Shown: positions 3,599-56,455 of the stretch, piece after piece
Numbering within the stretch: position 1 is the stretch's first letter
Layout of the letters: every line of letters begins with the position of its first letter
IMG/VR virus record: IMGVR_UViG_3300028832_002797
Length of the DNA stretch: 64,000 nt
Source: a virus
Taxonomy: Duplodnaviria > Heunggongvirae > Uroviricota > Caudoviricetes
Reading direction: 5' to 3' (one strand)
The notes under the pieces: generated by a model
What the model saw: the letters and a program-made list of their open reading frames with translations, nothing else
The model's database searches: none
Told to the model about the DNA's origin: nothing
Translations under genes and position numbers: made by a program

Positions 3599-3961
3599 TT
3601 ATCGGCCGAGGAACTCGTTGAGAACTTCACCTTCCGACGGATATAAATCACGGTACGGATTATGATATTCTGCCTTCTGTTTTACGAATTCACTCTTTTC
3701 CGTCTTTTCGACAACGAAATCCTTATCAATCTTTGCAGCGGGTGCTTCGAGAATTTCCTTAGATTCCGTAATCTGTTGCGGCTTAATCAAACCTTCAGCA
3801 GCCTTAGGCTTTGATGATTCGTTAATCTGCGGAGCCGGAGTTTCTTGGTGAGCGGCTTCATATTCCTTGAGCTTAGTCTTATGCTTTGTCCACATGTGAG
3901 AGCCAAGCTTCATACGGTTTTCAAAAGTTTCACCACAAATAGGGCAAGTTACTTGATCCAT
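3599..3961 (-). CDS. C2H2-type zinc-finger protein (CPICGETF...HMWTKH)
   Basis: N-terminal CxxC...HxxxxH pattern. Verified ATG at 3959-3961. Confidence 0.5.
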   Translation of the reverse strand: MDQVTCPICGETFENRMKLGSHMWTKHKTKLKEYEAAHQETPAPQINESSKPKAAEGLIKPQQITESKEILEAPAAKIDKDFVVEKTEKSEFVKQKAEYHNPYRDLYPSEGEVLNEFLGR

Positions 3962-4642: not shown

Positions 4643-5719
4643 CTAACTGAAAAACTCGAACATTGTCGGTCGTTCCAAATTAATTTCTTCCTTCGGACCT
4701 AACCAACCAGCGATTCTGAACATCGTATCGAAAAGCTGACAGAAAGATTTTCTGAATGCGGTTTCATAGTCAATCTCAAAGTATTTATTAAATTCTTGCG
4801 GCCAAGATTCGAGATATGCGACTGCTTCAATCGGCGAAGTTTTTCCGTCCATATCCTTGGCTACAATCTTCTGAGATGGCTTTACATATACATATCGTAA
4901 TTTGGAATTATTACGAATCGGGTTATATTTCAACCTGTCCTTAGTAACGATATAGTTGTAGATAATCGAAATCTTTGCACCGAAAATGAGACCAGTCGGA
5001 AGAATCAAACCGTGGTCCATGTAATAGTCCATGAGAGTCTCGTATTTCATATCGAACGGCGTCGTATTCATCGCACTTTCAGAATACAGCTCTCTGAATT
5101 TGTCCATGGCGATTGTCGTATATTTCGTATAGTTCTTGATACCGATAACCGACGAAATAACGTTCAAATCCGAGCTCTTAAACTGGTCATAAACCTTGTA
5201 GATATATTCCTGTGCTTCGTCCTTACCGATACCGTCGCAGATTTTGAATGCGAGTTCTTCAGCAGCCGTTTTACAGAAGTCTGGCATAGTCGATTTCTTA
5301 ATAGGAACGCCCATAATTTTATGCTTCATGTGGTCAAGCGGATATAACGAACCTTCACTATCGATAATATTACCGATATACAACTTCTTTGCAAAACAGA
5401 ACATGTTTTTGAAGATGTTTTCACGGTTGAAATTAATCTTATTGACCGTATGGAACTGCTTGGCTCGAATGTCGAGAATCTTATCGAAGAAACGCTGGAA
5501 CACGTCCTCGCATTTCTGGAAATAGCTTCGATATTCCTCTTCGTTCGTAATCTGCAAACCAGATTCCATCAAACGCTTCTTTAGCTCAATAATCGAAAAA
5601 TAAACTGAGTCCGTATCATTATGGACCGCACAGACATCGCGACCTTTCACGACAAGAGGACTCATGTCGTTCATTTGAAATTTATCAATCTTTACATCTA
5701 ATGCTTTCTTAAATTCCAT
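4643..5719 (-). CDS. Family B DNA polymerase, C-terminal subunit (motif C region, HNDTDSVYF)
   Basis: YGDTDS-like motif C (VHNDTDSVY). ATG at 5717-5719 lies 1 nt after the TAA (5721-5723) of the upstream pol fragment. The track ORF extends upstream in a non-coding overlap. Confidence 0.75.
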   Translation of the reverse strand: MEFKKALDVKIDKFQMNDMSPLVVKGRDVCAVHNDTDSVYFSIIELKKRLMESGLQITNEEEYRSYFQKCEDVFQRFFDKILDIRAKQFHTVNKINFNRENIFKNMFCFAKKLYIGNIIDSEGSLYPLDHMKHKIMGVPIKKSTMPDFCKTAAEELAFKICDGIGKDEAQEYIYKVYDQFKSSDLNVISSVIGIKNYTKYTTIAMDKFRELYSESAMNTTPFDMKYETLMDYYMDHGLILPTGLIFGAKISIIYNYIVTKDRLKYNPIRNNSKLRYVYVKPSQKIVAKDMDGKTSPIEAVAYLESWPQEFNKYFEIDYETAFRKSFCQLFDTMFRIAGWLGPKEEINLERPTMFEFFS

Positions 5720-5720
5720 C

Positions 5721-7928
5721 TTAATCCTCAATACCGAGAAGGTCAGTGTCCTTGTTGAATTCGTAAGCGTAGATTTCCATTTCGTCATTACCGCGAAGAA
5801 CAGTAATCTTTTCATAGAAATCGTACTTATATGTCTTTTCTTCCGTAATGATGGAAACTGTCGAGAATTCCTTGACAACATCCTTGAGCAAGAACGGAGA
5901 AACATAGTATTCATTGAGATTCTTGGTCAACCAGTCTCTCAAAGTGACACGAGCGCAACGGCAAATAGCACGAGCAACGTCAGGGTCATACAAAGCGAAA
6001 CTGTTAGCAAGAGAAACACCGTAAACCGAGTTAATGATGAGCTTCTTGGTCATCTGTCGGTTATGATACAAATGTTCACCAGCTTTATCGCCTTTCTTGT
6101 GACATTCCTTTTCCTTATTCTTATATACCTTACGTTCTGCAAACACCTGCTTGACAACGTTCGGAAGAATACCGTCATCACGGTTATAGAAACCAAGTTC
6201 TGCAACGTCTGTCGGAATAACCTCACCGGATTCAATCTGTTCCTTAGTCGGATGAACAACCTTCAATTCCGGAGAGATATGGAATTCCATAATGTGGTGC
6301 GGATATGACGAGGTAATATCGAAAGACATACAATCGTCATGTCGACCAGGGAAGTCATAACAATAACCTGCCTTTACCTGGAATTCTGGGAACGGATGAG
6401 GATCCTTCTTATACGCTTCCCATGCGGCAAGGAAATCCTTTTCAGTTTTCCAATGCTCGAATCTTCTCTGTCCGACAAGTCGCTTGATTGTATCGTAATC
6501 ATACTTTCCTTCAGACTGAGCTTCCTTATAAGCATCATAGAAAACACGGAACTTACAATAGTCCTTATAACGCTTTGCACCCGGTTCCCATTCAGTGTTC
6601 TGGAAATAATCGTTTCCGTCCTTATCTTTTACGATATAGCAACGTTCATTTCTCCACCAGTCAACATGATGGTCTTCACGGTCATTCAAAACACGGTTGG
6701 TCTTATGTAAGAATTTTAAGATATAACCAGTAGTCGTCGGAACCTTCTGTTCAACCTTATCGAGAGTAACAAGGCAATCGAATGCATATTCAATAATAAG
6801 GTCGAAGAGCTTGTTTTTCTTTTCAAGGTCGACCATAATCATAACGTCCTTTCTGTTATACTTCAGGAAGTTATTACCGTCAATCTTGTAGGTTTCAGAA
6901 ATTGCACCGCTATATTCCAACTTTTGGTCATTTAATTCGAGGTTGGCAACATAGTTAAGGGAATACGAAGAAAGAGGCGGATGAGATCCGAAGACTTCGT
7001 ACAGTTTCATGTAGTCAAGAGAATACAAACCAGGAATCGTGTACTTCGTTCCAAGTTCAACGTTTTCCATCTTGCGGTCAGTAATCTTTTCAGCCACAGG
7101 CATCATGCCGAGAGGAGACAGATTCTTTTCCCATTCAACCTTGATGTCGTATTTCTCTCTGAGAACTTCACAACGACGCATGATATAGGGAATATCGTAT
7201 GCGAGCGAGTTCCAACCTGTAATGATGTCAAAATGATTATTGGCGAACCACTTAATCCATTCACGGATAAGTACCATTTCTGACTTACAGTACGTATAAT
7301 TCGGTAAATCCTTCGGGTCATCTGTATATCTGATTGTGCTCCAGGTATAAGATTGACCAGTCTTTGTAGAATAACAAGTAATGGCGTTAATTGGCCACTG
7401 AGCTATTTCAGGAGACGGGAAGTCATATGAAACAAAACAGCTATCATCGTAGGGAAGCCATTTCTGAACTTCAATGTCATAAACAAAATACTTGTCATGG
7501 TCAAACTTCATATCGAAATCAATAAGACTGATGTCGAGAGTTTTCTTGGTTTTCTTTTCGCAGACCTTAATCAATGTTTCGTCATAATACTTACTTCCTG
7601 ACGCAACTTCAATATCGAAGAAACAGATATTCCATTTGCTCATATCAACTTGGAGTTCTTCGTTATCGTATAGTTGGTGCATGTATTTGACTTCTGGACG
7701 CAAATTACCTTCACATACGCCTCTAAGACCCATAAGGGAATTACGGTCACTATAATCGAACCGTATCATCGGTGTCTTGTGAATGTCAGTAATATTGCTC
7801 TTCTTTGAAGGATCCGGCCTGTAGCACCAGTTATGAAATTCAACTTCTTTAAAATCAATATCATCTTGGGCTTTAAAATAGAGCTTTTGTTTTTTAAAGT
7901 CCCAGTAACAATTCTTAAATCCACTCAT
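5721..7928 (-). CDS. Family B DNA polymerase, N-terminal subunit (3'-5' exonuclease + palm motifs A and B)
   Basis: Exo I (FFDIEV) and Exo II (WNSLAYDIPYI) motifs. Motif A DITSSYPHHI and motif B KLIINSVYGV. Ends before motif C. Confidence 0.85.
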   Translation of the reverse strand: MSGFKNCYWDFKKQKLYFKAQDDIDFKEVEFHNWCYRPDPSKKSNITDIHKTPMIRFDYSDRNSLMGLRGVCEGNLRPEVKYMHQLYDNEELQVDMSKWNICFFDIEVASGSKYYDETLIKVCEKKTKKTLDISLIDFDMKFDHDKYFVYDIEVQKWLPYDDSCFVSYDFPSPEIAQWPINAITCYSTKTGQSYTWSTIRYTDDPKDLPNYTYCKSEMVLIREWIKWFANNHFDIITGWNSLAYDIPYIMRRCEVLREKYDIKVEWEKNLSPLGMMPVAEKITDRKMENVELGTKYTIPGLYSLDYMKLYEVFGSHPPLSSYSLNYVANLELNDQKLEYSGAISETYKIDGNNFLKYNRKDVMIMVDLEKKNKLFDLIIEYAFDCLVTLDKVEQKVPTTTGYILKFLHKTNRVLNDREDHHVDWWRNERCYIVKDKDGNDYFQNTEWEPGAKRYKDYCKFRVFYDAYKEAQSEGKYDYDTIKRLVGQRRFEHWKTEKDFLAAWEAYKKDPHPFPEFQVKAGYCYDFPGRHDDCMSFDITSSYPHHIMEFHISPELKVVHPTKEQIESGEVIPTDVAELGFYNRDDGILPNVVKQVFAERKVYKNKEKECHKKGDKAGEHLYHNRQMTKKLIINSVYGVSLANSFALYDPDVARAICRCARVTLRDWLTKNLNEYYVSPFLLKDVVKEFSTVSIITEEKTYKYDFYEKITVLRGNDEMEIYAYEFNKDTDLLGIED

Positions 7929-25612: not shown

Positions 25613-26329
25613 CTAATTATAAATAAAATTTTTAATAGATTCAAAAACAATATCTTTATTATTAGTATAATCGTATTCCCAGATTATAAGAAGCTTTATA
25701 TTTTTAGATTCACATAATATTCGTTTTTCATTATCTCGATTCCATAATTCTTGTGCTATTTTACGAGGTTGTATTAAAAAATCATTCGCTTTATAAAAAC
25801 GTGGGTCTGCATGCCATACAGTACCATTATATTCAATGGCTTTATTTAAATTTGGTAAATATATATCTAATTCTTTATTCCCAATAACAAATCTTTCATT
25901 TTGTAAAATTTTATCATTATAAAATGTTTTTATAAATTCACAAATTTCATCTTCAGCTCTAGAACGCATTAATGTATTGTTTAATCTCATAGTATTAAAC
26001 CGTTTTTCTTGCACTTCTGGATTTTGCGATGAATTCTTATATCCCGTCTTTTCAAAATACGTCTTTATATAAGTATTATATCGTTGTTTATTTGCTATTG
26101 GATCTGCAGAACTACAGGAATAATTACAATGCTTTTTATATCCTCGACCAAATTTAATAAATTTAGTCTCTTTACCACAAGTTGGACATATACCTTCACC
26201 GGGTTTTCTTATAAATTTATCGTAATATTCTTTTGAAGTTAACCCATGCTTTTTAAAAGCATGAGATGTTAATCCTTGTGTATCAACACATTCTTTGCCA
26301 CATATCTGACAAATCATACTATACCTCAT
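25613..26329 (-). CDS. Zinc-finger protein fused to DUF559/Vsr-like PD-(D/E)xK endonuclease domain (candidate free-standing homing-type nuclease)
   Basis: N-terminal CxxC/C2H2-like motifs (CQICGK...HAFKKH; CPTCGK). C-terminal ELDIYLPNLNKAIEYNGTVWH matches the DUF559 core (D-[FI]Y-P...AIE-x-[DN]G..H). The gene is AT-rich. Confidence 0.55.
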   Translation of the reverse strand: MRYSMICQICGKECVDTQGLTSHAFKKHGLTSKEYYDKFIRKPGEGICPTCGKETKFIKFGRGYKKHCNYSCSSADPIANKQRYNTYIKTYFEKTGYKNSSQNPEVQEKRFNTMRLNNTLMRSRAEDEICEFIKTFYNDKILQNERFVIGNKELDIYLPNLNKAIEYNGTVWHADPRFYKANDFLIQPRKIAQELWNRDNEKRILCESKNIKLLIIWEYDYTNNKDIVFESIKNFIYN

Positions 26330-26377
26330 TTAATTTTAAAAGATTGCAGTCTTTTATACTATTTATAATAAAAAAAT

Positions 26378-26401
26378 GGGAATACTCTGCAAAGTATTCC
26401 C
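26378..26401 (-). terminator. Hairpin gggaatact-ctgcaa-agtattccc plus T-run downstream of the patatin gene
   Basis: 9-bp stem. Confidence 0.5.
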
Positions 26402-26425
26402 TAATGCTATGAGGTATAGCATGTT

Positions 26426-27298
26426 TTAAACGTTTTTAATAAAATCTAGTATATTTATACGAACAGTTTCATAATATTTATCCCAGATTCCCATTATTAA
26501 ATTAATATTTTCGTCACTTACATTATCCATTTTAAGTTTTTTCTTATATGTTGGACATGCATTAAATACGTTTTCAGCCCCAAGTATTGCTTCACATTCA
26601 TATTGTGGGCTTTTGCTAGAACGTGCAATCCAATCGCTGAGCATATATTCTGCCCATCCAAGTAAAGTTTGATTACCATGCTCAGTATTTGGAGTTTCCA
26701 TACCTGTACTAAAATTAAGAATTTTAATATCTTTATGTCCCTGTTTAAATTGACCTGCCAAAAGAATATCTGAACATTCATTAGCCCAGCAACCGCCATC
26801 CATATAAGATAAACCATCTTTTTCAATAACATCAAAATATGTTGGTGCTGCACAAGATGTTAAAACTGCAAATGCTTTATCAACATCTTTATCGCCTAAA
26901 TCCCATACTTTTTCAACAGATTTACCATTCATGCAAGTAGTTGGTATAAAAATAGGTTTTTTCCAATCTGAACATTTACCTTTCAAATTACTCTGTAATA
27001 ATTTTTTAAGATTAGAATTATCATATGTTGGGCAAGACGGTTTTAAACGCTTATACCATGAATACTTTGTAAAAATTTTCTTTAAGTTATTCTTATAAAG
27101 TTCAAATATATCATGTGCCGAATATCCTTCAGCTAAACAAGCAGCAATAATAGAACCTGTACTTGTTCCTGCAAAAGCAGAAGTTAAATCACAAAGTTTT
27201 TTACCAAGATCCTGTTCAAGACGACACATAAAAGCTAATGGGCCAATTCCAAGAGCACCACCGCCCGCAATACTAATACATAATTGTTTCTTTGCCAT
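26426..27298 (-). CDS. Patatin-like phospholipase
   Basis: Oxyanion GGGALG, nucleophile elbow GTSTGS (GxSxG) and catalytic MDGG (DGG) motifs in the canonical order. Confidence 0.75.
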   Translation of the reverse strand: MAKKQLCISIAGGGALGIGPLAFMCRLEQDLGKKLCDLTSAFAGTSTGSIIAACLAEGYSAHDIFELYKNNLKKIFTKYSWYKRLKPSCPTYDNSNLKKLLQSNLKGKCSDWKKPIFIPTTCMNGKSVEKVWDLGDKDVDKAFAVLTSCAAPTYFDVIEKDGLSYMDGGCWANECSDILLAGQFKQGHKDIKILNFSTGMETPNTEHGNQTLLGWAEYMLSDWIARSSKSPQYECEAILGAENVFNACPTYKKKLKMDNVSDENINLIMGIWDKYYETVRINILDFIKNV

Positions 27299-27340
27299 AT
27301 TTTCTCCTATACATTATTTATAAATAGGAGAAAACTTAGA

Positions 27341-27820
27341 TTATGCTAAATTTTTCAATATTGTGGTTTCAAGCTCAAAATCATTCATGGCCTTTTTATA
27401 TTCAAAACTATCTTCATGTCCAGAAAGTCTCGAATATGGAATTCCCATAGAATCCCAGATTCTATGCTGCATAACTATCCAGCCATTCTCAGCATAAAAA
27501 TCTTCCCATCTATTAAGAAATTCAATCAGATCATTTAGCTTAGATTTTGTCAGCCATTCCAACATTTTAAAGACATTATCTTTATGGTCAAAAATCATTA
27601 TTGCACATCTGTCTTTAATGGGCATAAGAGTACATGTGACCATAATTTCAAACTTTTCTTCATCTTCATACCAACTGAGTTCAACCTCAAAACGATTATC
27701 CTTATCACGAAGACAAATACTTTCATGGGTTTGAGAAGTATTTATACTCATGTAATAATTATCTGGTTTAATTCGAAGAATATAGTTTTGAAAATGTTGG
27801 AATGTATATGCGTCAGACAT
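27341..27820 (-). CDS. hypothetical protein (159 aa), AT-rich island
   Basis: ORF track. Confidence 0.4.
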   Translation of the reverse strand: MSDAYTFQHFQNYILRIKPDNYYMSINTSQTHESICLRDKDNRFEVELSWYEDEEKFEIMVTCTLMPIKDRCAIMIFDHKDNVFKMLEWLTKSKLNDLIEFLNRWEDFYAENGWIVMQHRIWDSMGIPYSRLSGHEDSFEYKKAMNDFELETTILKNLA

Positions 27821-28266
27821 TACTTCTTACCTAGAAGCTTATTAAAGGCATTTACGAGCTTACTGATTTCGTCTTCACCGTGTGTAGGTTCATAATCAAT
27901 ACTTGTATCATAAACAACACGACGTTGAACTGGTTCTTTCTTCATTTTTTCCTTATGTTCATTCATAAGTTTTTCAGCAAGTTCATATGACGGAATATAA
28001 AATCCAACATCCCATGAAGCATCTTTTGAACAAATATGAGGTTTAGATTCTTCTTTCCAAAGACAGCTATCACGGTATCTTAAGTATCGTTCCATATTAT
28101 AGGTCAAACGAAACCAAGTCTTCGAACCACTATTTATCTTACGGTATTCAACAACAAACCATGACGGATCTCGGTTTGCAATACTTGGAGAAACGTCAAA
28201 ATCGAACGTCGGATATTCAAATGTACCAAGTTCTATAATACGATATTCATAAAGTGATTTTTCCAT
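27820..28266 (-). CDS. hypothetical protein (148 aa)
   Basis: ORF track. Confidence 0.4.
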   Translation of the reverse strand: MEKSLYEYRIIELGTFEYPTFDFDVSPSIANRDPSWFVVEYRKINSGSKTWFRLTYNMERYLRYRDSCLWKEESKPHICSKDASWDVGFYIPSYELAEKLMNEHKEKMKKEPVQRRVVYDTSIDYEPTHGEDEISKLVNAFNKLLGKK

Positions 28267-49784: not shown

Positions 49785-50061
49785 AATTAGAATCTAATTT
49801 AATTGTCCATCCACGACATGAAACGGTATCGCCTTTAAAAAACTCTGCAGCCTTGATATAAAATGGTAGAGTTCCAGCTATGAATTCTTTATATTCATCT
49901 TTATACAATATTACAAACTTGACATAATTACCATTATTGTCATACCAGCTAAGACAGGTATTATCTATCTTCGAATAACAAACATAGAAAGCTTTTGATT
50001 TGTTTTTACGTTTAATCCGAACCTTTATTGCTCCAGGTACATATTTTTTACTGCAATACAC
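49732..50061 (-). CDS. small protein, paralog 2 of 3
   Basis: GDTVSCRGWTIKLDSNYAFQKFIHNLETECVLK. Confidence 0.45.
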   Translation of the reverse strand: MYCSKKYVPGAIKVRIKRKNKSKAFYVCYSKIDNTCLSWYDNNGNYVKFVILYKDEYKEFIAGTLPFYIKAAEFFKGDTVSCRGWTIKLDSNYAFQKFIHNLETECVLK

Positions 50062-50482
50062 TTTCCATCTCCAAATTGTTTACAAGTCTGTCAATATCGC
50101 CGCTAGTTTTGATTTCAAGTGTCCAAGTAGGAAATACAACAGTATCTCCACGCTTGATAATATATGTTGCATGGTCTGGAGATAACAAACCATAAAAATA
50201 CCCAGTATTACTTCTATCGATTTCACTTACTGGAATATACTGTACACCAATGGCATATTTTTCCTCTGGCGGAATATTACCATGTGGTGTACCCATCATT
50301 AACATGTTTAAATAATCCATAGTGTCTCGCCATCTTTCGGTCAAATCTGGATTATATTTTTTACTAGTGTAAACTTCCATTCTAAACCAGGGCGCATATT
50401 CGACCCTGCTTGAATGTCCGTTTCTAATTACAGTAAACAAAATAGGCTTTGCATGATTTTCAGTAGTATCGATAGAACTCAT
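50048..50482 (-). CDS. small protein, paralog 3 of 3
   Basis: GDTVVFPTWTLEIKTSGDIDRLVNNLEMESVLQ. Confidence 0.45.
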   Translation of the reverse strand: MSSIDTTENHAKPILFTVIRNGHSSRVEYAPWFRMEVYTSKKYNPDLTERWRDTMDYLNMLMMGTPHGNIPPEEKYAIGVQYIPVSEIDRSNTGYFYGLLSPDHATYIIKRGDTVVFPTWTLEIKTSGDIDRLVNNLEMESVLQ

Positions 50483-50490
50483 TTGGCCTC

Positions 50491-50943
50491 CTAAGAAACG
50501 AATTCGGCAAATCCGCTATTTTCAATTTTTGTTTCATCGACTTCTTCTTTAGGTTTCCAGTTTTCAAAATCCCATTTAAAGAAATCAGCACATACAATAT
50601 TTTTGTTTACAATTTTACTGTATTTAGGTCCAACAATTTCAAGAATTCTTTGAACACACAAATCTCTGTTATCCTGCATCAATTCAACACCGTAAAGTGT
50701 CTTTACTGCATCTTCAACTGAAATTCCAGAAGCAAGACGTTTTTCAAGCATACGAACAAGGATATTTCCAGAACCAGCTGTAGGATCCAAAAATGTGGCT
50801 TTAGGGTCTTTCCATTTTTCTTCAGGAATTTTAGCAATCATTTGGTCAATAACTGCAAATGGGGTAAATACTTCACCATTCTTGGTGATACGTTCTTTAG
50901 AACGCTGAATTCCATCATTAGTAGTAAATAATTCTTTAACCAT
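50491..50943 (-). CDS. N6-adenine DNA methyltransferase (gamma class), N-terminal fragment (motifs X, I, II, III)
   Basis: Motif X GEVFTP, motif I LDPTAGSGNIL, motif II LYGVELMQDNRD and motif III IVCADFFKWDF. Terminates about 20 aa after motif III, before NPPY. Start moved to ATG 50941-50943. Confidence 0.6.
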   Translation of the reverse strand: MVKELFTTNDGIQRSKERITKNGEVFTPFAVIDQMIAKIPEEKWKDPKATFLDPTAGSGNILVRMLEKRLASGISVEDAVKTLYGVELMQDNRDLCVQRILEIVGPKYSKIVNKNIVCADFFKWDFENWKPKEEVDETKIENSGFAEFVS

Positions 50944-50956
50944 AATATTAAACCTT

Positions 50957-51760
50957 TTAATCACCTATAATAGATTTATAAGTATTTTCCCAAAAAGTTT
51001 TATTTTGATTTTTATTATTTGGACAACCCAAATATTTTAATAAATCATCTTCATCAATTTTATCAAATGCTTGTGAACCTATAGCACTTGTAATAGAATC
51101 TGATACCTTTGTTGTAGTAACAATAAGTGCTCTACGATTTACATTTAAACCCCAATCAATCCATTCATCTTTTGTTAATTGACCATCACGAAATAATGTA
51201 CGAACACGTTCATCAGTTAATGCTACGGCTTTTGTAATTTGGTCATTCCATTTAACTGATTTTTCAAAACGATATTTAACTTGAACACCAATAAAAAATT
51301 TACTATTATTTCCTTTAGCGGCATGTTTTAACCATCCATCTACACCTGCATCTTCTTTACTATTTCCAACCCATTCACTAAATGTATATTTATTAGTAAA
51401 TGGATGGCAATTCTGAGAAAACATATTACCAGCAATAATTTCCATAATATTGCCTTGCCATTTCCATTGTAAATTCTGTAAAACTGCTTTTGTAAGTTTA
51501 GGAGCAACTTTATAATTTCTACCGTCAGTAAGAGAATTATCTTCAATTTTGAGTTCATTTATTAACTTTGTAGAATAACTCATAATTATTTCACGTAAAT
51601 AATCTGTAGAATTATAAAGATTATAACCTGTAGATTGCATAAAATTAAAAAATTCCAATGCAATTTTAGATGGCGACTGCATATAATGAATAATTCCGTT
51701 TTCACGTTTATGATACGGGTCAAGTGCTGCTGATGTAATTAATTCTTTAAAATTTGACAT
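50957..51760 (-). CDS. hypothetical protein, candidate PD-(D/E)xK restriction endonuclease partner
   Basis: D-x(n)-(E/Q)xK-like block VDGW...FFIGVQVKYR. Position immediately upstream of the methyltransferase. Weak. Confidence 0.3.
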   Translation of the reverse strand: MSNFKELITSAALDPYHKRENGIIHYMQSPSKIALEFFNFMQSTGYNLYNSTDYLREIIMSYSTKLINELKIEDNSLTDGRNYKVAPKLTKAVLQNLQWKWQGNIMEIIAGNMFSQNCHPFTNKYTFSEWVGNSKEDAGVDGWLKHAAKGNNSKFFIGVQVKYRFEKSVKWNDQITKAVALTDERVRTLFRDGQLTKDEWIDWGLNVNRRALIVTTTKVSDSITSAIGSQAFDKIDEDDLLKYLGCPNNKNQNKTFWENTYKSIIGD

Positions 51761-51835
51761 ACATTATTCCTTTTTATATAATATAGAAAAACCATTTACT
51801 TTTGTAAATGGTTAAAATAAAACTATATATTGAAA

Positions 51836-52930
51836 TTACCATTGTTTCATAATTTCTTCCCATTCAGAACCGGGTACCGCATGTTCATCATCAATATAAC
51901 CATTAATATTAAAATAATCACAAAACATTTTAGTAGTCCAAGGTTTAGTATAATCATTAAAATATGGTAATTTTTCAGAATATACATGCGTATTAAATTT
52001 CCATAACCTATAATACCATATCATAAATCGATGGCAATAACAATCATAAAAATTATGTCGTTCTATTTCAGTATCAAATTCAAAATGTCCACCTTGATTA
52101 TTATATGCAGTTTTTTCATTCATTGGTACCGTTTGACATTGAATATTATATTCTTTACACATAATACAATCTAGTTCATTTGAATTACCGTGTATAGGAG
52201 CAACATCTAATTTAAATTGTTTATTTGGAATTTGATTTAAATAAAATTTCTTGGGACTATATGGTAACCAGTTTGATTGTTTAACTTTATTAATAATTTT
52301 TTTATTTAAAGGTGTTTCCATATCATAATTGAAACCGCCATTTCCACAAACATAAATACCTAAATTTATTGTAAATTTTGCACCAACAAAAATTTTATTT
52401 GCGGTATCGGCGTCAATAATTTGAAGGGTTTCAATTTTTTTACTAATAAATTCTTCAAATTTATTATAATCTGAAGATTTAATATATTTTGCAAAAGGAT
52501 CTTGTAACCAACGTATAGGACTAATATTAACTACTTTATCACATAAAGGAATAACTTTACTTAAAATTTTTAAATGTAAACTTCCATCATATGGTGGGTT
52601 CATAATTGCAACATCAAATTTCATATTAATTCCTTTTAACCAGTTTAACCAAGCATTACTATCTGTAATAATGTTACCTTTTTTATCAACTGATGTATTT
52701 ATGAGAATAACAGCATCGTCATTACCAAAATTAATATTTCGAATAACAACTAATCTAAATTTTTCTTCTGCTTCTGGATCATCTGTAACAAATAAAACTT
52801 TATTATTCTTTGCTAAAAATACAGCAGTATACCAGTCACGAATAACTAAAACGGTTTTATTAGAAATTTTGCCTAGTTTTGAAACTAACATATTAGTAAA
52901 AACTGTAGGTATTTTAGCTTGATATTTCAT
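51836..52930 (-). CDS. NPPY-motif DNA methyltransferase-like protein (motif I not identified)
   Basis: FDVAIMNPPYDGSLHLK catalytic-type motif IV around residue 100. Confidence 0.4.
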   Translation of the reverse strand: MKYQAKIPTVFTNMLVSKLGKISNKTVLVIRDWYTAVFLAKNNKVLFVTDDPEAEEKFRLVVIRNINFGNDDAVILINTSVDKKGNIITDSNAWLNWLKGINMKFDVAIMNPPYDGSLHLKILSKVIPLCDKVVNISPIRWLQDPFAKYIKSSDYNKFEEFISKKIETLQIIDADTANKIFVGAKFTINLGIYVCGNGGFNYDMETPLNKKIINKVKQSNWLPYSPKKFYLNQIPNKQFKLDVAPIHGNSNELDCIMCKEYNIQCQTVPMNEKTAYNNQGGHFEFDTEIERHNFYDCYCHRFMIWYYRLWKFNTHVYSEKLPYFNDYTKPWTTKMFCDYFNINGYIDDEHAVPGSEWEEIMKQW

Positions 52931-52997
52931 AGAGTATAAACCTTAATTGCTATATGTAATATAGCAAATTATACTTAAACCGTAAACCCTGTTTTGT

Positions 52998-54605
52998 CTA
53001 AAAAATCATCAATGCTTTATTAAGTTCCTCTTCATTAAGATAAGTATTAACAAGTTCCGGATATTTTTCATTCCATAATTCAGTATATTTTGTAGCCGCA
53101 TTAATTTTTGCTATAGTATCAGAACCTGACATAATTTCTTTAAGTTCACCAATTTCATTTGCAATAATACTCCATTTATCAAAATCAGTTTTCATCGATT
53201 TTACATAAACATCAAGATCTTTGTATTTTGTAAAAATATTATTTACAATATTACCATCTTCTGGAAAAGGAGGGTCATCATTATCAGCAGAACCATCATT
53301 TTGGTCTTCAACAATTCCGCCGAAATCAAATGTACCACCAGTAATATCTGCAAGGTTTTTCAAAAAATCAATCATATTATCAGCAATACCTGTTTCAGTT
53401 ATTGCATAAAGATTAAAATCAACTTTACCTTGAGATTTACGACAACCGCGACTTACTGCTTGATATAAAGATGCATCAGATTTTTGACATGCAATAAGAA
53501 CACTATTAAGTTCTGGAAGGTCAATACCTTCAGTAAGCATAAATGCATTTAAAATAATTTTTTCGTTTTTATCATTTCGAATAATTTCAAGTATTTCTGC
53601 TTTCGTATATTTTTTATTATTATTATAATCATTGCCATTTACACGTAGGCAAGCCTTATATTTTTTTTCGTCAATAGCAATATCCTTATCTGAAATAATT
53701 TCATAAATATTAACATTTCGAATTGCTTTTCTTTTAAGATTATTTTTAACTTCATTAAGTTGTTTACCAACCATAGCCACTGCATCAACACTAGGTAAAA
53801 ATACAATAAGATTTGTATTTTCTTTACGTGATTTACGACAATGTTTAACAGTACGAATAACAAGATTTGTATATGCAAGATCATTAAGATTTGCATAATC
53901 TTTTACTTCCATACCAAAAAAACGCGGTTTTACAATATAACTAGCTTTAACTGCTTCAGCAAAATTACAATGATAAATAGTTGTTAAATTATTAGTAAGA
54001 TATTTACCAGGTGTTGCAGTAAAGAAATAATATTTTTTATTATTGCCGTTCATTGCAGCTTGAACAGTTTTTACTAAAGAATCACTAAATTCTTTATGGG
54101 CTTCATCATGTACATAAAGATCAACTTTACTAAGAATATTATTTGCTAATGCATCCAAACCATTTTTATGAAGCGTATCATGATGTTTTACATAATCAAT
54201 AATAGATGCCGTAGTAGTAAAATAAATTACATGTTCAGGCATACCAGTAGCCATTTCATCCGCACCTTTCTGTTTAAGAGAATTATCTCCTTCAGAATTA
54301 AGCATAATAAGTTTAACATTATGCTCAGTAAAAAAGTTATTAGTTAAACTATTAAAATTATTCTTAACTTGTGCTTCAAGAAGTAAACGATGGCAAACCC
54401 AAATACCTTTAAATTTTCTTCCTTCTTTTTCTGCATTAAGAATTTCACGAACAAAAGTAAAAACTTGAATCCATGTTTTACCAACACCGCAAGCAATTTC
54501 AAGTAATCCATGATTGTTATCCCACATTGCATCAATAGCTTCAAACTGTGCAATACGCGGAGTTTTTGCCATAATTTTAATCATAGATTCAGATACTTTA
54601 GCCAT
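52998..54605 (-). CDS. Superfamily-2 DEAH-box helicase/ATPase (restriction Res-/UvsW-like)
   Basis: Motif I CGVGKT, motif II VHDEAH, motif III FTATP and motif VI QAVSRGCRK. Very AT-rich coding sequence. Confidence 0.65.
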   Translation of the reverse strand: MAKVSESMIKIMAKTPRIAQFEAIDAMWDNNHGLLEIACGVGKTWIQVFTFVREILNAEKEGRKFKGIWVCHRLLLEAQVKNNFNSLTNNFFTEHNVKLIMLNSEGDNSLKQKGADEMATGMPEHVIYFTTTASIIDYVKHHDTLHKNGLDALANNILSKVDLYVHDEAHKEFSDSLVKTVQAAMNGNNKKYYFFTATPGKYLTNNLTTIYHCNFAEAVKASYIVKPRFFGMEVKDYANLNDLAYTNLVIRTVKHCRKSRKENTNLIVFLPSVDAVAMVGKQLNEVKNNLKRKAIRNVNIYEIISDKDIAIDEKKYKACLRVNGNDYNNNKKYTKAEILEIIRNDKNEKIILNAFMLTEGIDLPELNSVLIACQKSDASLYQAVSRGCRKSQGKVDFNLYAITETGIADNMIDFLKNLADITGGTFDFGGIVEDQNDGSADNDDPPFPEDGNIVNNIFTKYKDLDVYVKSMKTDFDKWSIIANEIGELKEIMSGSDTIAKINAATKYTELWNEKYPELVNTYLNEEELNKALMIF

Positions 54606-54697
54606 ATTTATTCCTTAATCTTATGTATATAATATAGCAAATAGGTTAACCATTGTCAACCTATAAAATTATTAATATAATTGATAGAAACTAAAAA

Positions 54698-55465
54698 TTA
54701 TCGTGATACATAGCTTTCACAGGATTCTTCTTTTTTAATAGCACGCATTTTTGCATATGAATCTTTACTGTCACCTTCAAATTTATCTAAATCACTTAAT
54801 AAATTACAATTATGGATAATTGCTTTTGCGGTACATTCTTTAAATCTTCTAGCATCATCATTGTTTTTAATTGAAAGTATGGCATTCAAGTTATAGAAAA
54901 AACAGTCTATATCTTCTTTATCTGATTTTACCCTAATAGTCTGATATGTATGATAAAAGCCTTTTGTTTTTCCAATAGAATATATACAATTTTTTATAAT
55001 GTTTGCTCTGGCAGAATTTTTATTTACGAACATTTTACCAAGTTCATAAGTATCAAAACTATATTCTAGTTCATAAAATTTATATTCATATCTATATGTT
55101 TTAGGGTCATTTTTCAAATGATATTTTCCAACTCTTTTATTATATCTTGCACGTACATTTAAAATAACGTCATTATCTGGATGTTTTATATTGAAAATGA
55201 TTGTAGAATATGGCAGTATGTCCTCAGGTTCAGATGTAATGCCATTATATGTTACTGGTGCTATTTTAAATGCTGAAACATCATAACCGCATACTTCAAT
55301 ACCATATTTTTCAAACAGTTTAATAATCTGAAAAATTTCACCTTTTCTTGCTGTTATTTCTTTCTTTGTCTGTTTGACTACATCAATGACTTTATTATAC
55401 TGTTTGATATGTTTATCAAGAAGTTTATTAATATCGTTTCCAATTTTAATATCTAAATCTTTCAT
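54698..55465 (-). CDS. hypothetical protein, family-X paralog 1 (255 aa)
   Basis: Shares the KYGIEVCGYDV / GYEIVYHEI / GYKIIGYSMF block and the K.GKYHL / KLYLTIRHK / GRYYMTLRGK block with 55877..56455 and 56457..57053. Confidence 0.45.
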   Translation of the reverse strand: MKDLDIKIGNDINKLLDKHIKQYNKVIDVVKQTKKEITARKGEIFQIIKLFEKYGIEVCGYDVSAFKIAPVTYNGITSEPEDILPYSTIIFNIKHPDNDVILNVRARYNKRVGKYHLKNDPKTYRYEYKFYELEYSFDTYELGKMFVNKNSARANIIKNCIYSIGKTKGFYHTYQTIRVKSDKEDIDCFFYNLNAILSIKNNDDARRFKECTAKAIIHNCNLLSDLDKFEGDSKDSYAKMRAIKKEESCESYVSR

Positions 55466-55467
55466 AA

Positions 55468-55875
55468 TTAGCCAGGCAAAGAATCCAAAGCTTCTTCTGT
55501 TTCACTCTGTTGTACTCGCAAATAGATATTGCGATAATCAATGACGTTTTCGTAGATTGCATTAAATACGGTCTTGATGTCTCGCAGTTCTCTACTGTTA
55601 AACCAGATAGTAAAAGAATCTGCACTACGTTGATTTCCATTACATAGAATCATGCATTGATTATGAAGTTCAATGCAAAGCTGATTTCCAGGAATATGGA
55701 AAAACTTCGAACGTTCTGGACGAATAAAGTTATGATGAATTAAGAATGAATGAACAGTATCATGAACTTCGTCAGAAAACGGAATGGCATCACTTATCGT
55801 ATTAAGGAAATAAGCATGCTGTTCAGTCGGTGTCATTTCCCTAAAACTTTTTATTTCTTTTTTCTTTCTAGCCAT
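55468..55875 (-). CDS. hypothetical protein (135 aa)
   Basis: ORF track with verified ATG. Confidence 0.4.
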   Translation of the reverse strand: MARKKKEIKSFREMTPTEQHAYFLNTISDAIPFSDEVHDTVHSFLIHHNFIRPERSKFFHIPGNQLCIELHNQCMILCNGNQRSADSFTIWFNSRELRDIKTVFNAIYENVIDYRNIYLRVQQSETEEALDSLPG

Positions 55876-55876
55876 A

Positions 55877-56455
55877 TTAATCCAGTTTTTTAAGGGTTTT
55901 AATCATTTGCAAATTTTTCTTTGCCATTGCACAAACATATTCTTTATATTTTGTGTAATCTTCTTCAGTTACGATATTAGACAAACCGTCAACCAACAAG
56001 AAGAACGTATCAATCTTTTCGGGTTCCGTATCTGCGAAGATTTGGATAAATGGAGTTTCCTGTGTAGCACGAGCATAATAGTATTTTGCACTATGCTTCT
56101 TGCTGACAAATCCGGTCTTGTGACGGATAGTCAAATACAGCTTATTCTGTTTATCTTCTTTCTTTGAAGCCGAGATATTGTAATTCAGAACGACTGGATG
56201 CTCAGAATCTTTCTTACGGATATGAATAGACGAAATTTTGTTTTCGACATACGTATTCTGAATTATTGGTTGTTCGATTTCGTGATAAACGATTTCATAG
56301 CCTCTTGAAGTGATGAGATTTTCAAGAGTTTCTGCGTCTGCCTGATTTTTCGTAAAAATACCTTTATACCGTTCAATGGAACGGTCACGCATATCGTTGT
56401 AGTATTTCTTGATACGCTCGATATTGTCATCTATGATACTTGAAAAACGTGCCAT
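55877..56455 (-). CDS. hypothetical protein, family-X paralog 2 (192 aa)
   Basis: Conserved C-terminal ...TLKKLD versus ...LLNTLD in paralog 3. Confidence 0.45.
   Translation of the reverse strand: MARFSSIIDDNIERIKKYYNDMRDRSIERYKGIFTKNQADAETLENLITSRGYEIVYHEIEQPIIQNTYVENKISSIHIRKKDSEHPVVLNYNISASKKEDKQNKLYLTIRHKTGFVSKKHSAKYYYARATQETPFIQIFADTEPEKIDTFFLLVDGLSNIVTEEDYTKYKEYVCAMAKKNLQMIKTLKKLD

Follow-up and report, generated by a model that had tools for sequence, protein, structure and literature searches.

In a 64,000-nucleotide stretch of DNA from a virus of the Caudoviricetes (IMG/VR record IMGVR_UViG_3300028832_002797), hereafter called the window, a gp43-like family B replicative DNA polymerase (PolB) is encoded as two adjacent co-oriented cistrons. 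The break falls between motif B and motif C of the enzyme, 98 residues past the former and 33 residues ahead of the latter, and two additional segments border it, one at the end of the first product (the tail) and one at the start of the second (the head). A break at this place with added tails has not been described before. The window split is best understood as one state of a PolB gene polymorphism that is associated with an endonuclease and has spread by recombination in a group of large uncultured phages. We consider it probable that the account holds as a whole, that is, that a two-subunit polymerase is made from coupled cistrons, that the tails act as a clasp, and that the split was acquired by endonuclease-associated recombination.

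The first cistron, open reading frame 1 (ORF1), encodes 735 amino acids (aa) with the exonuclease domain and motifs A and B, and the second, ORF2, opens at an ATG one nucleotide (nt) downstream and encodes 358 aa with motif C and the thumb (Table 1). This arrangement had been reported in a preliminary description of the DNA, and we confirmed its coordinates on the minus strand. ORF1 matches Pfam PF03104 DNA_pol_B_exo1 over residues 133-327 (expectation value, E, 6e-14) and PF00136 DNA_pol_B (1.6e-11) at profile positions 60-193, which is the first third of that profile, and ORF2 gives a weak match to its later positions (262-362); the tblastn matches of ORF2 are the C-terminal parts of cyanophage gp43. 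The exonuclease domain is present, with D105, I106 and E107 of ORF1 nearly invariant among homologues, and among 20 homologues no variation was observed at D537, S540, S541, Y542 and P543 of motif A or at K629, N633, S634, Y636 and G637 of motif B. The family B set of motifs A (DxxSxYP), B (KxxxNSxYG) and C (DTDS) is complete only when both ORFs are combined. At the protein level ORF1 is 93% identical to the homologue P0038 and 68% to the contiguous homologue P0039, and ORF2 is 92% identical to P0001. The best relatives in cultured phages are cyanophage gp43 proteins, only ~30% identical, and no near-identical DNA to the locus was found in cultured phages. The phage to which the window belongs is large, its replication and recombination genes are T4-like (UvsX, RNA ligase, helicase and a ClpP-like protease), and relatives that are 88% identical in DNA over the polymerase gene sit on contigs of up to 411 kb.

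The same junction was found in five other assemblies. These loci (L001 and L011-L014), which come from different samples, are the 88%-identical relatives; they align without gaps over 3286 nt and have an identical layout of stop codon, 1 nt and ATG, although the spacer base is A in L001 and L012 where the window has G. Diverged split versions are present in many further assemblies, and the split arrangement persists across lineages down to ~35% identity. In comparison with the 88%-identical relatives, 6-7 synonymous and no non-synonymous substitutions were counted in the tail, and the ratio of synonymous to non-synonymous changes in the ORF bodies is ~2:1; to judge from these substitutions, the tail is under purifying selection. 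The ORF2 frame is open for 65 codons upstream of its ATG (a 423-aa ORF from 5914). Over this stretch the same relatives show 0 synonymous and 11-12 non-synonymous changes in the ORF2 frame, against 8-9 synonymous and 3 non-synonymous changes in the ORF1 frame; since this pattern fits the ORF1 frame and not the ORF2 frame, the upstream extension is non-coding. Its interpretation as the trace of a recent frameshift or as an overlapping gene was rejected on the same substitution pattern, and the extension is missing from L002.

These observations bear on two ways in which the split could be spurious. The first, already raised in the preliminary description, is that a sequencing or assembly indel artificially broke a normal one-piece polymerase gene, since the ORFs abut with a 1-nt offset and the 65 open upstream codons would let one indel fuse them. 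However, the junction recurs in the five assemblies mentioned above, the site of the split, with other spacers, is common to many diverged relatives, the surplus of the window over contiguous orthologues is 181 bases and not one, and the upstream extension of the ORF2 frame evolves like non-coding sequence, so that we regard such an artefact as practically inconceivable. The second is that the locus is a decaying pseudogene in a phage replicated by another polymerase. A break within the catalytic palm would normally abolish enzyme activity, and only 64 kb are visible of a genome that may exceed 400 kb; but both ORFs are intact and under purifying selection, every catalytic motif is retained and the arrangement has been maintained over the range of divergence given above, which makes decay very improbable. 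The gene is therefore genuinely divided between motifs B and C, and its two cistrons abut, as first proposed.

The homologues of ORF1 fall into two length classes, of ~730-760 aa and ~1075-1100 aa, and the long class consists of contiguous orthologues located in the same neighbourhood (ClpP ... IF1-like ... 76 aa ... 68 aa ... PolB ... UvsX). Alignment to split and unsplit homologues, which had been suggested as a check, bore out the split and revealed in addition an insert of ~60 aa that had gone unmentioned. Residue 682 of P0039 aligns to ORF1 residue 690, the residues that follow in P0039 align to ORF2 from residue 16, and ORF2 as a whole aligns to P0039 residues 684-1086; what the window has in excess is a tail of 45 aa (ORF1 residues 691-735) and a head of 15 aa (ORF2 residues 1-15). 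The spacing between the end of motif B and the His of HNDTDS was 213 nt in every contiguous locus without the insert, 384 nt in one-piece loci that have it (L040, L042, L049 and L055), 388-428 nt in abutting split loci, 394 nt in the window (+181) and 1372-1588 nt in loci with an intervening gene. In all contiguous loci the reading frame is open throughout from motif B to motif C. An ORF2 search of 50%-cluster representatives gave many short C-terminal pieces but was not used for counts, because contig-end fragments are indistinguishable there from true split products.

The sequence pattern of tail and head is kept in split relatives down to ~35% identity, and a head pattern M-x-F-x-K...VK is shared by P0001-P0004, P0010 and P0015. 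Tail and head are also found as one continuous insert (ADFNETTDLVCLTKEEDAEHASNVVRYNF) in one-piece polymerases of 991-1001 aa, namely those of L040, L042, L049 and L055 (at ~5000-5250 in each) and P0158. No tblastn match to the tail peptide was obtained at E <= 1 in 50,697 phage records; the tail was thus found in none of the cultured phages of this collection. It could be supposed that the two extensions together make up a split intein, which would join the pieces by trans-splicing, as happens in Nanoarchaeum PolB and in 'fractured genes'. The layout of the relatives fits fractured genes (N-part of the host gene with an extension, endonuclease gene, second extension with the C-part), and the more distant PolB homologues P0090 and P0091 bear inteins according to precomputed PF14890/PF07591 annotations. 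Nevertheless, extensions of 45 and 15 aa are too short for known intein halves, the first tail residue is V or I with no conserved Cys/Ser, the head has no terminal HN with Cys/Ser/Thr after it, and tail plus head matched no Hint or intein profile of Pfam even at E = 10; moreover, natural one-piece homologues retain the insert in the mature ORF, where it is modelled as a confidently folded unit. We consequently hold trans-splicing to be highly unlikely.

The position of the insert in the polymerase fold was obtained from the alignment of P0039 residues 616-668 to RB69 gp43 555-606, which covers motif B and the next palm helix, ending NEYLN. The insert falls a few residues beyond this, in the loop at ~RB69 607-615, ahead of the strand with D621/D623. 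As a stand-in for the window pieces we modelled P0158, a natural homologue of 999 aa in which the polymerase is one piece and the insert is retained, and the model was read as secondary structure and confidence values. With a mean predicted local distance difference test score (pLDDT) of 91.9 and a predicted template modelling score (pTM) of 0.82, the model matches RB69 gp43 with a template modelling (TM) score of 0.71-0.83 and E 1e-50, and so through this homologue the polymerase has the RB69/T4 gp43 fold. The insert of P0158 (~residues 637-700, block pLDDT 94-96) comprises strands at 639-642, 647-650, 656-660, 663-667 and 692-695 and a short turn at 684-686. The window tail aligns to the first four of these strands and the head to the last one, and the window break maps to the linker at ~residues 681-690. 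The model confidently predicts that the insert folds into a small unit rich in beta strands, placed in the palm loop immediately ahead of the motif C hairpin.

Since motif A and motif C are on different chains, neither piece should be active alone. The catalytic carboxylates are divided between two polypeptides, and therefore the enzyme would have to work as a non-covalent heterodimer, which we infer by analogy with phage 25 gp43A/B and the split Pfu polymerase. Tail and head would probably form one small sheet clasping the two halves together.

Seven junction layouts among split relatives, which cover all three frame relations, were compared. The spacer between the cistrons is -20 nt in L017, -11 nt in L016, +1 nt in the window, L001 and L012, +2 nt in L052, +5 nt in L043, +26 nt in L002 and +29 nt in L044. 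In the split relatives piece 2 always starts with Met-(E/K)-F-x-K, and the stop codon of piece 1 varies (TAA, TAG or TGA). GGAG, GAGG or AGGA precedes 33 of the 73 minus-strand ORFs of the window, compared with 6.7% of random 15-mers, and therefore the phage uses Shine-Dalgarno initiation. A promoter and terminator scan gave no terminator-like site between the cistrons, and its promoter-like matches were not above shuffled expectation. Most likely, ribosomes initiate on cistron 2 separately, at its own Shine-Dalgarno sequence, and this initiation is coupled to termination on cistron 1 (GAGGA-TTAAG-ATG); coupling of this kind would yield roughly matched amounts of both pieces.

The preliminary description had put forward a programmed frameshift or readthrough as the alternative, and +1 frameshifting, stop readthrough or a short hop at the junction would indeed fuse the ORFs into one polypeptide. 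ORF2 is in the +1 frame relative to ORF1, and matched Asp codons flank the stop (GAT-TAA-GAT, 5717-5726, minus strand) with GAGGA just upstream. However, a GAT-to-GAT hop lands in frame 0 and reaches a TAA two codons on, a P-site GAU is unable to re-pair in the +1 frame, and the 88%-identical relatives have TAA-AAT, so that the matched codon is not conserved; the hop across GAT-TAA-GAT was accordingly discarded as unproductive, unconserved and devoid of apparent function. A more general point is that the overlaps and spacers of the relatives span all frames, so a single frameshift, hop or readthrough would be insufficient, whereas separate initiation at the conserved Met start with its Shine-Dalgarno sequence can serve all of them. 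The junction sequences thus argue that there is no recoding in the window, and we find a fused product hardly credible. tRNA genes or a code reassignment behind the stop were also considered and rejected: no tRNA genes were found within the 64-kb window, TAA is used as a stop, and the stops of the relatives vary.

Table 1. Features of the polymerase locus in the window (positions in nt of the window; aa, amino acids).
Feature	Position	Strand	Description	Basis
Cistron 1 (ORF1)	5721..7928	minus	735 aa + TAA (5723-5721); N-terminal domain, 3'-5' exonuclease, palm part with motif A, fingers with motif B, 45-aa C-terminal extension	ORF list, translation
Cistron 2 (ORF2)	4643..5719	minus	358 aa + stop (4645-4643); 15-aa N-terminal extension, palm part with motif C, KKLYIG region, thumb	translation
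Junction	5717..5723	minus	TAA 5723-5721, single spacer G 5720, ATG 5719-5717	
Motif A, DITSSYPHH	6294..6320	minus	ORF1 aa 537-545; bears catalytic Asp	
Motif B, KLIINSVYG	6018..6044	minus	ORF1 aa 629-637; fingers helix	
Motif C, HNDTDSVY	5600..5623	minus	ORF2 aa 33-40; catalytic Asp pair	
Shine-Dalgarno-like GAGGA	5725..5729	minus	Within the final codons of cistron 1, 5 nt before the cistron 2 ATG	
Cistron 1 C-terminal extension (tail)	5724..5858	minus	aa 691-735, VSIITEEKTYKYDFYEKITVLRGNDEMEIYAYEFNKDTDLLGIED	
Cistron 2 N-terminal extension (head)	5675..5719	minus	aa 1-15, MEFKKALDVKIDKFQ	
Central patch of different ancestry (approximate)	5315..6011	minus	ORF1 ~aa 640-735 + ORF2 aa 1 to ~135	

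In a number of relatives an endonuclease gene is located between the PolB halves (L004/5, L010, L015, L029, L080, L082, L103, L111, L113 and L114). The intervening ORF or ORF pair amounts to ~320-370 aa in total and is tightly packed against both halves. Most of the intervening ORFs shown have a C2H2-like finger at the start and an (E/F)(Y/F)(N/D)G..(F/W)H motif at the end, and that of L103 is broken in two and has a different, PD-ExK-like end motif; they match PHROG 3339 'homing endonuclease' (6e-27) and, at a borderline level, DUF559 (Vsr-like). Two features of a gene-fracture cassette are observed in this family: the host gene is contiguous in relatives and split at a fixed site, and the split form has conserved extensions that are missing from the contiguous form. 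A pair of loci that differ in the endonuclease gene, L002 (without) and L082 (with), are 95% identical in DNA through the tail to the stop, ~65% identical from the piece 2 ATG to DTDS (estimated by eye on the printed alignment) and ~90% identical after that; from this pattern, the moving unit would consist of the endonuclease gene, its own head-to-motif-C segment and the extra bases described below.

An endonuclease homologue is also present elsewhere in the window, as a 238-aa ORF at 25613-26329 (minus strand) with tblastn E 6e-25 against the L015 gene and PHROG 3339 E 4.5e-24, and therefore this genome carries the same endonuclease family at another site. The ORF is located in a stretch of low guanine-cytosine (GC) content (0.31), flanked by a patatin-like gene (26426-27298) and an unknown 638-aa ORF.

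In a neighbour-joining tree built from the 400 residues that precede the insert site, split forms are intermixed with contiguous ones throughout, with close pairs among them. The split P0076, which has an endonuclease gene, and the contiguous P0052 are ~99% identical over 285 residues and diverge across the final 80 residues ahead of the insert, and the tail type of P0076 differs from that of its closest split relatives. Sliding-window identities show that residues 1-630 of ORF1 and 136-358 of ORF2 are closest to the contiguous P0039, at 70-90% in most intervals. Outside the central patch (Table 1), identity to L002/L016 is 45-66%; inside it, the window gene is 63-75% identical to the L002/L016 split type versus 43-66% to P0039. 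The gene is thus a mosaic, and therefore the split junction arrived, or was replaced, by recombination over ~0.7 kb. Divergence tracts adjoining the junction may be taken as indirect signs of endonuclease-driven homing. The split allele was most likely acquired through recombination or gene conversion, and the window would represent the endonuclease-free state of the cassette, either as a remnant or as a split allele that was never invaded.

Several observations weigh against this account. L002 and L082 have a common tail (95% DNA identity) and differ by replacement of the head side alone, which means that the endonuclease can invade an already split gene and need not have caused the split. 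At the window junction itself, with its 1-nt spacer, there is neither an endonuclease gene nor a trace of one. Tail identity mostly tracks core identity, with few discordant pairs, and insert-bearing forms occupy the deepest branches (P0073, P0077, P0078 and the L040 group); the insert may be old and largely vertical, and it may be the contiguous form that spread by recombination instead. For the structural part, the insert is poorly aligned for many split sequences in the alignment used by the model, and the confidence there rests on few sequences.

Taken to its end, this leads to an ancient, vertically inherited split and insert, with insert-less contiguous forms produced by repeated loss and endonuclease genes as later, unrelated squatters; the deep branches, the agreement between tail and core identity and the endonuclease gene of L082 in an already split gene would all follow. 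However, the spacing is exactly 213 nt in all insert-less contiguous loci, which a large number of separate deletions would hardly produce, pairs of near-identical sequence are found in different states with a divergence tract adjoining the junction, the mosaic of the window gene is centred on the junction, and the tail of P0076 is unlike that of its closest split relatives. We consider purely vertical descent unlikely, although it retains some real weight, and prefer acquisition of the split by endonuclease-associated recombination.

Some features observed in the window and its relatives are recorded here in their own right. Two genes downstream of the polymerase, a 120-aa ORF of the window (3599-3961, minus strand) opens with a C2H2-type finger (zf-C2H2_4, E 1.4e-4) similar to the one at the N-terminus of the endonucleases (tblastn E 5e-4 to 4e-3), and may be a remnant or an independent small DNA-binding protein. 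In L010 (5401-6030) the N-part of PolB could be called from an internal TTG only (494 aa), with stops preceding the upstream homologous region, and it may have yet another interruption or be degraded. Two stretches of the window, 50001-56000 (which includes a helicase-like gene at 52998-54605) and 26001-28000, have a GC content of 0.27-0.31 compared with ~0.40 elsewhere and may be of different origin.

Natural splits of gene 43 have been described in the T4-related phages 25, 31, 44RR, 65 and 133 (Petrov et al. 2006, 2010; PMC3061061, PMC2988022). The 43A and 43B cistrons are co-oriented and 2 bp to 3 kb apart, in one case with a seg-type homing-endonuclease gene between them, and the gp43A/B pieces of phage 25 co-purify and are active (PMC3061061, PMC2988022). 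The breaks are placed there at the fingertip, between two finger helices and upstream of motif B (PMC3061061), and for phages 25 and 44RR it is likewise ambiguous whether the endonuclease or the split came first. The gp43-type polymerase of the window is similarly made of two adjacent co-oriented cistrons, and to this extent the resemblance to split gene 43 pointed out in the preliminary description holds; it does not extend to the site of the break, which in the window is downstream of motif B, in the palm loop that leads to motif C, or to the conserved 45-aa and 15-aa extensions that accompany it.

Two further family B polymerases have been divided. PolB of Methanothermobacter thermautotrophicus is split in the palm ~83 residues C-terminal of Pfu 467/468, with the genes 85 kb apart, and an engineered Pfu polymerase, split at the fingertip and expressed from a termination-reinitiation (AUGA) bicistron, is fully active (PMC3061061). 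In both cases a family B polymerase works as two non-covalently joined pieces, but, in contrast to the window, the splits have no added tails. By Pfu numbering, the Methanothermobacter split would be on the opposite side of motif C from the window break.

Added tails are known from gene fractures in which an endonuclease is involved. The MobA element of T4 divides the large subunit of topoisomerase between genes 39 and 60 (Bonocora et al. 2011, via 10.1101/2022.08.31.505936). The latter source describes a ~44-aa tail on piece 1 and a head on piece 2, a replacement copy of the next host segment carried by the element, followed by a 50-nt bypass that ribosomes must skip, and close relatives with and without the element (10.1101/2022.08.31.505936). 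The topoisomerase states recorded are (i) the parental contiguous gene, (ii) the full element, (iii) the element with the endonuclease lost, (iv) the bypass lost with split and tails kept, and (v) a secondary fusion. The PolB family has counterparts of all these states: the window corresponds to the split with tails, without endonuclease and without bypass, and the one-piece polymerases that keep the insert correspond to the 'hit and run' re-fused topoisomerase genes. The two systems differ in the host gene (PolB, not topoisomerase), in the endonuclease of the relatives (zinc finger plus DUF559/Vsr-like, PHROG 3339, not HNH), in the length of the head (15 aa in the window, 44-45 aa in MobA) and in the gap, which is 7-9 nt in the PolB relatives versus 50 nt and is missing from two endonuclease-bearing loci; in one pair (L002/L082), moreover, the tail is not within the moving unit.

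A second case is NrdA of Aeromonas phage Aeh1, split by MobE, where the added tails are reported to be required for activity of the reassembled complex. There too an endonuclease insertion splits an enzyme gene and tails are added, although the host gene is not PolB and the endonuclease gene, present in Aeh1, is absent from the window junction. In the 'fractured genes' of Dassa et al. 2009 (PMC2677866) the halves remain in one locus and in the original order, with a free-standing, often Vsr-like, endonuclease gene between them; split inteins accompany Vsr-like or GIY-YIG endonuclease genes, and loss of the endonuclease is predicted to leave abutting halves (PMC2677866). The window differs in that its extensions are not intein halves, and for this reason its pieces are not expected to be ligated.

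A bypass may nevertheless exist in the endonuclease-bearing relatives. In 8 of the 10 distinct loci with an endonuclease gene, extra bases are found directly after the Ser codon of DTDS (L004/L005 7374-7410; L010 8753-8790; L015 7290-7320; L029 7338-7375; L082 2421-2450; L111 2208-2235; also L080, L097 and L103). The six variants, with the extra bases enclosed between slashes, are GAT TCC/TAGGT TCC/GCG (8 nt), GAT TCC/TAGA TCC/GTA (7 nt), GAT TCC/TAAAAA TCT/TGC (9 nt), GAC TCC/TAGAAA TCT/TGT (9 nt), GAC TCC/TAAG TCT/GTT (7 nt) and GAC TCC/TAAA TCT/GTT (7 nt); L015 itself has GAC, not GAT, before the take-off codon. All six share the order UCC, UAA or UAG, 1-3 nt, UCC or UCU, and the reading frame is taken up again at precisely the residue that homologues have after DTDS (AYIC, VYFS, CYLC), be it in frame 0, +1 or +2. 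No start codon for a third piece is available at these loci.

Extra bases were found neither in the endonuclease-free split layouts checked (window, L001, L002, L016 and L017) nor in the contiguous loci checked (L006, L008 and L040); motif C of the window reads GAC TCA GTT, intact, and offers no bypass of this kind. A strict link between endonuclease and hop was rejected by L113 (3932-4999) and L114 (5240-6208), in which the endonuclease gene is present, DTDS-S/VY is intact and there are zero extra bases; the association is one-directional, with extra bases only where there is an endonuclease gene. Inspection by eye gave no RNA hairpin common to the variants, and no folding was run.

A hop of the peptidyl-tRNA-Ser from the first to the second Ser codon is the only reading that fits all six variants, and on these sequences it would be a lead and not a demonstration. 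Nine-nucleotide stop-hops are known from synthetic constructs, and according to a 2016 recoding review no natural in-frame case is known. We are evenly divided on whether the relatives carry an undescribed mobile cassette composed of a zinc-finger/Vsr-like endonuclease gene inserted at the palm loop of the polymerase gene, its own copy of the head-to-motif-C segment and, in most carriers, a stop-hop, of which the window would be a hop-free descendant or target allele. If true, an essential gene would depend on a short natural bypass, and the logic of T4 mobA/gene 60 would have a second, independent instance; the relatives form a compact, experimentally simple set of candidate natural stop-hops.

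A separate irregularity was seen in the C-part of PolB at L029 ~7640-7690, with the same sequence in L097 and L103, where the frame is broken at ATT AAA AGG C GGA GAT (IK / GGDSPD). The break lies on a run of four A followed by AGG in three near-identical assemblies, and either a +1 shift site or a homopolymer error could account for it.

Endonuclease-associated gene fracture as such is known; what is new is the fracture of a polymerase gene at this site. Gene callers report the loci of the relatives as fragments of 36-38 aa and ~275-315 aa, and polymerases are thus mis-annotated in this phage group. For the family B polymerase fold, the palm loop between motifs B and C is added as a natural break point, one that leaves the active-site halves on different chains. 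The tail-and-head module may be what makes such a break tolerable, and it is a candidate natural clasp for engineered split polymerases. Gene fracture by an endonuclease gene plus tails, known from the T4 topoisomerase and Aeh1 NrdA, extends with this locus to a replicative polymerase, and it does so in a widespread group of uncultured large phages.

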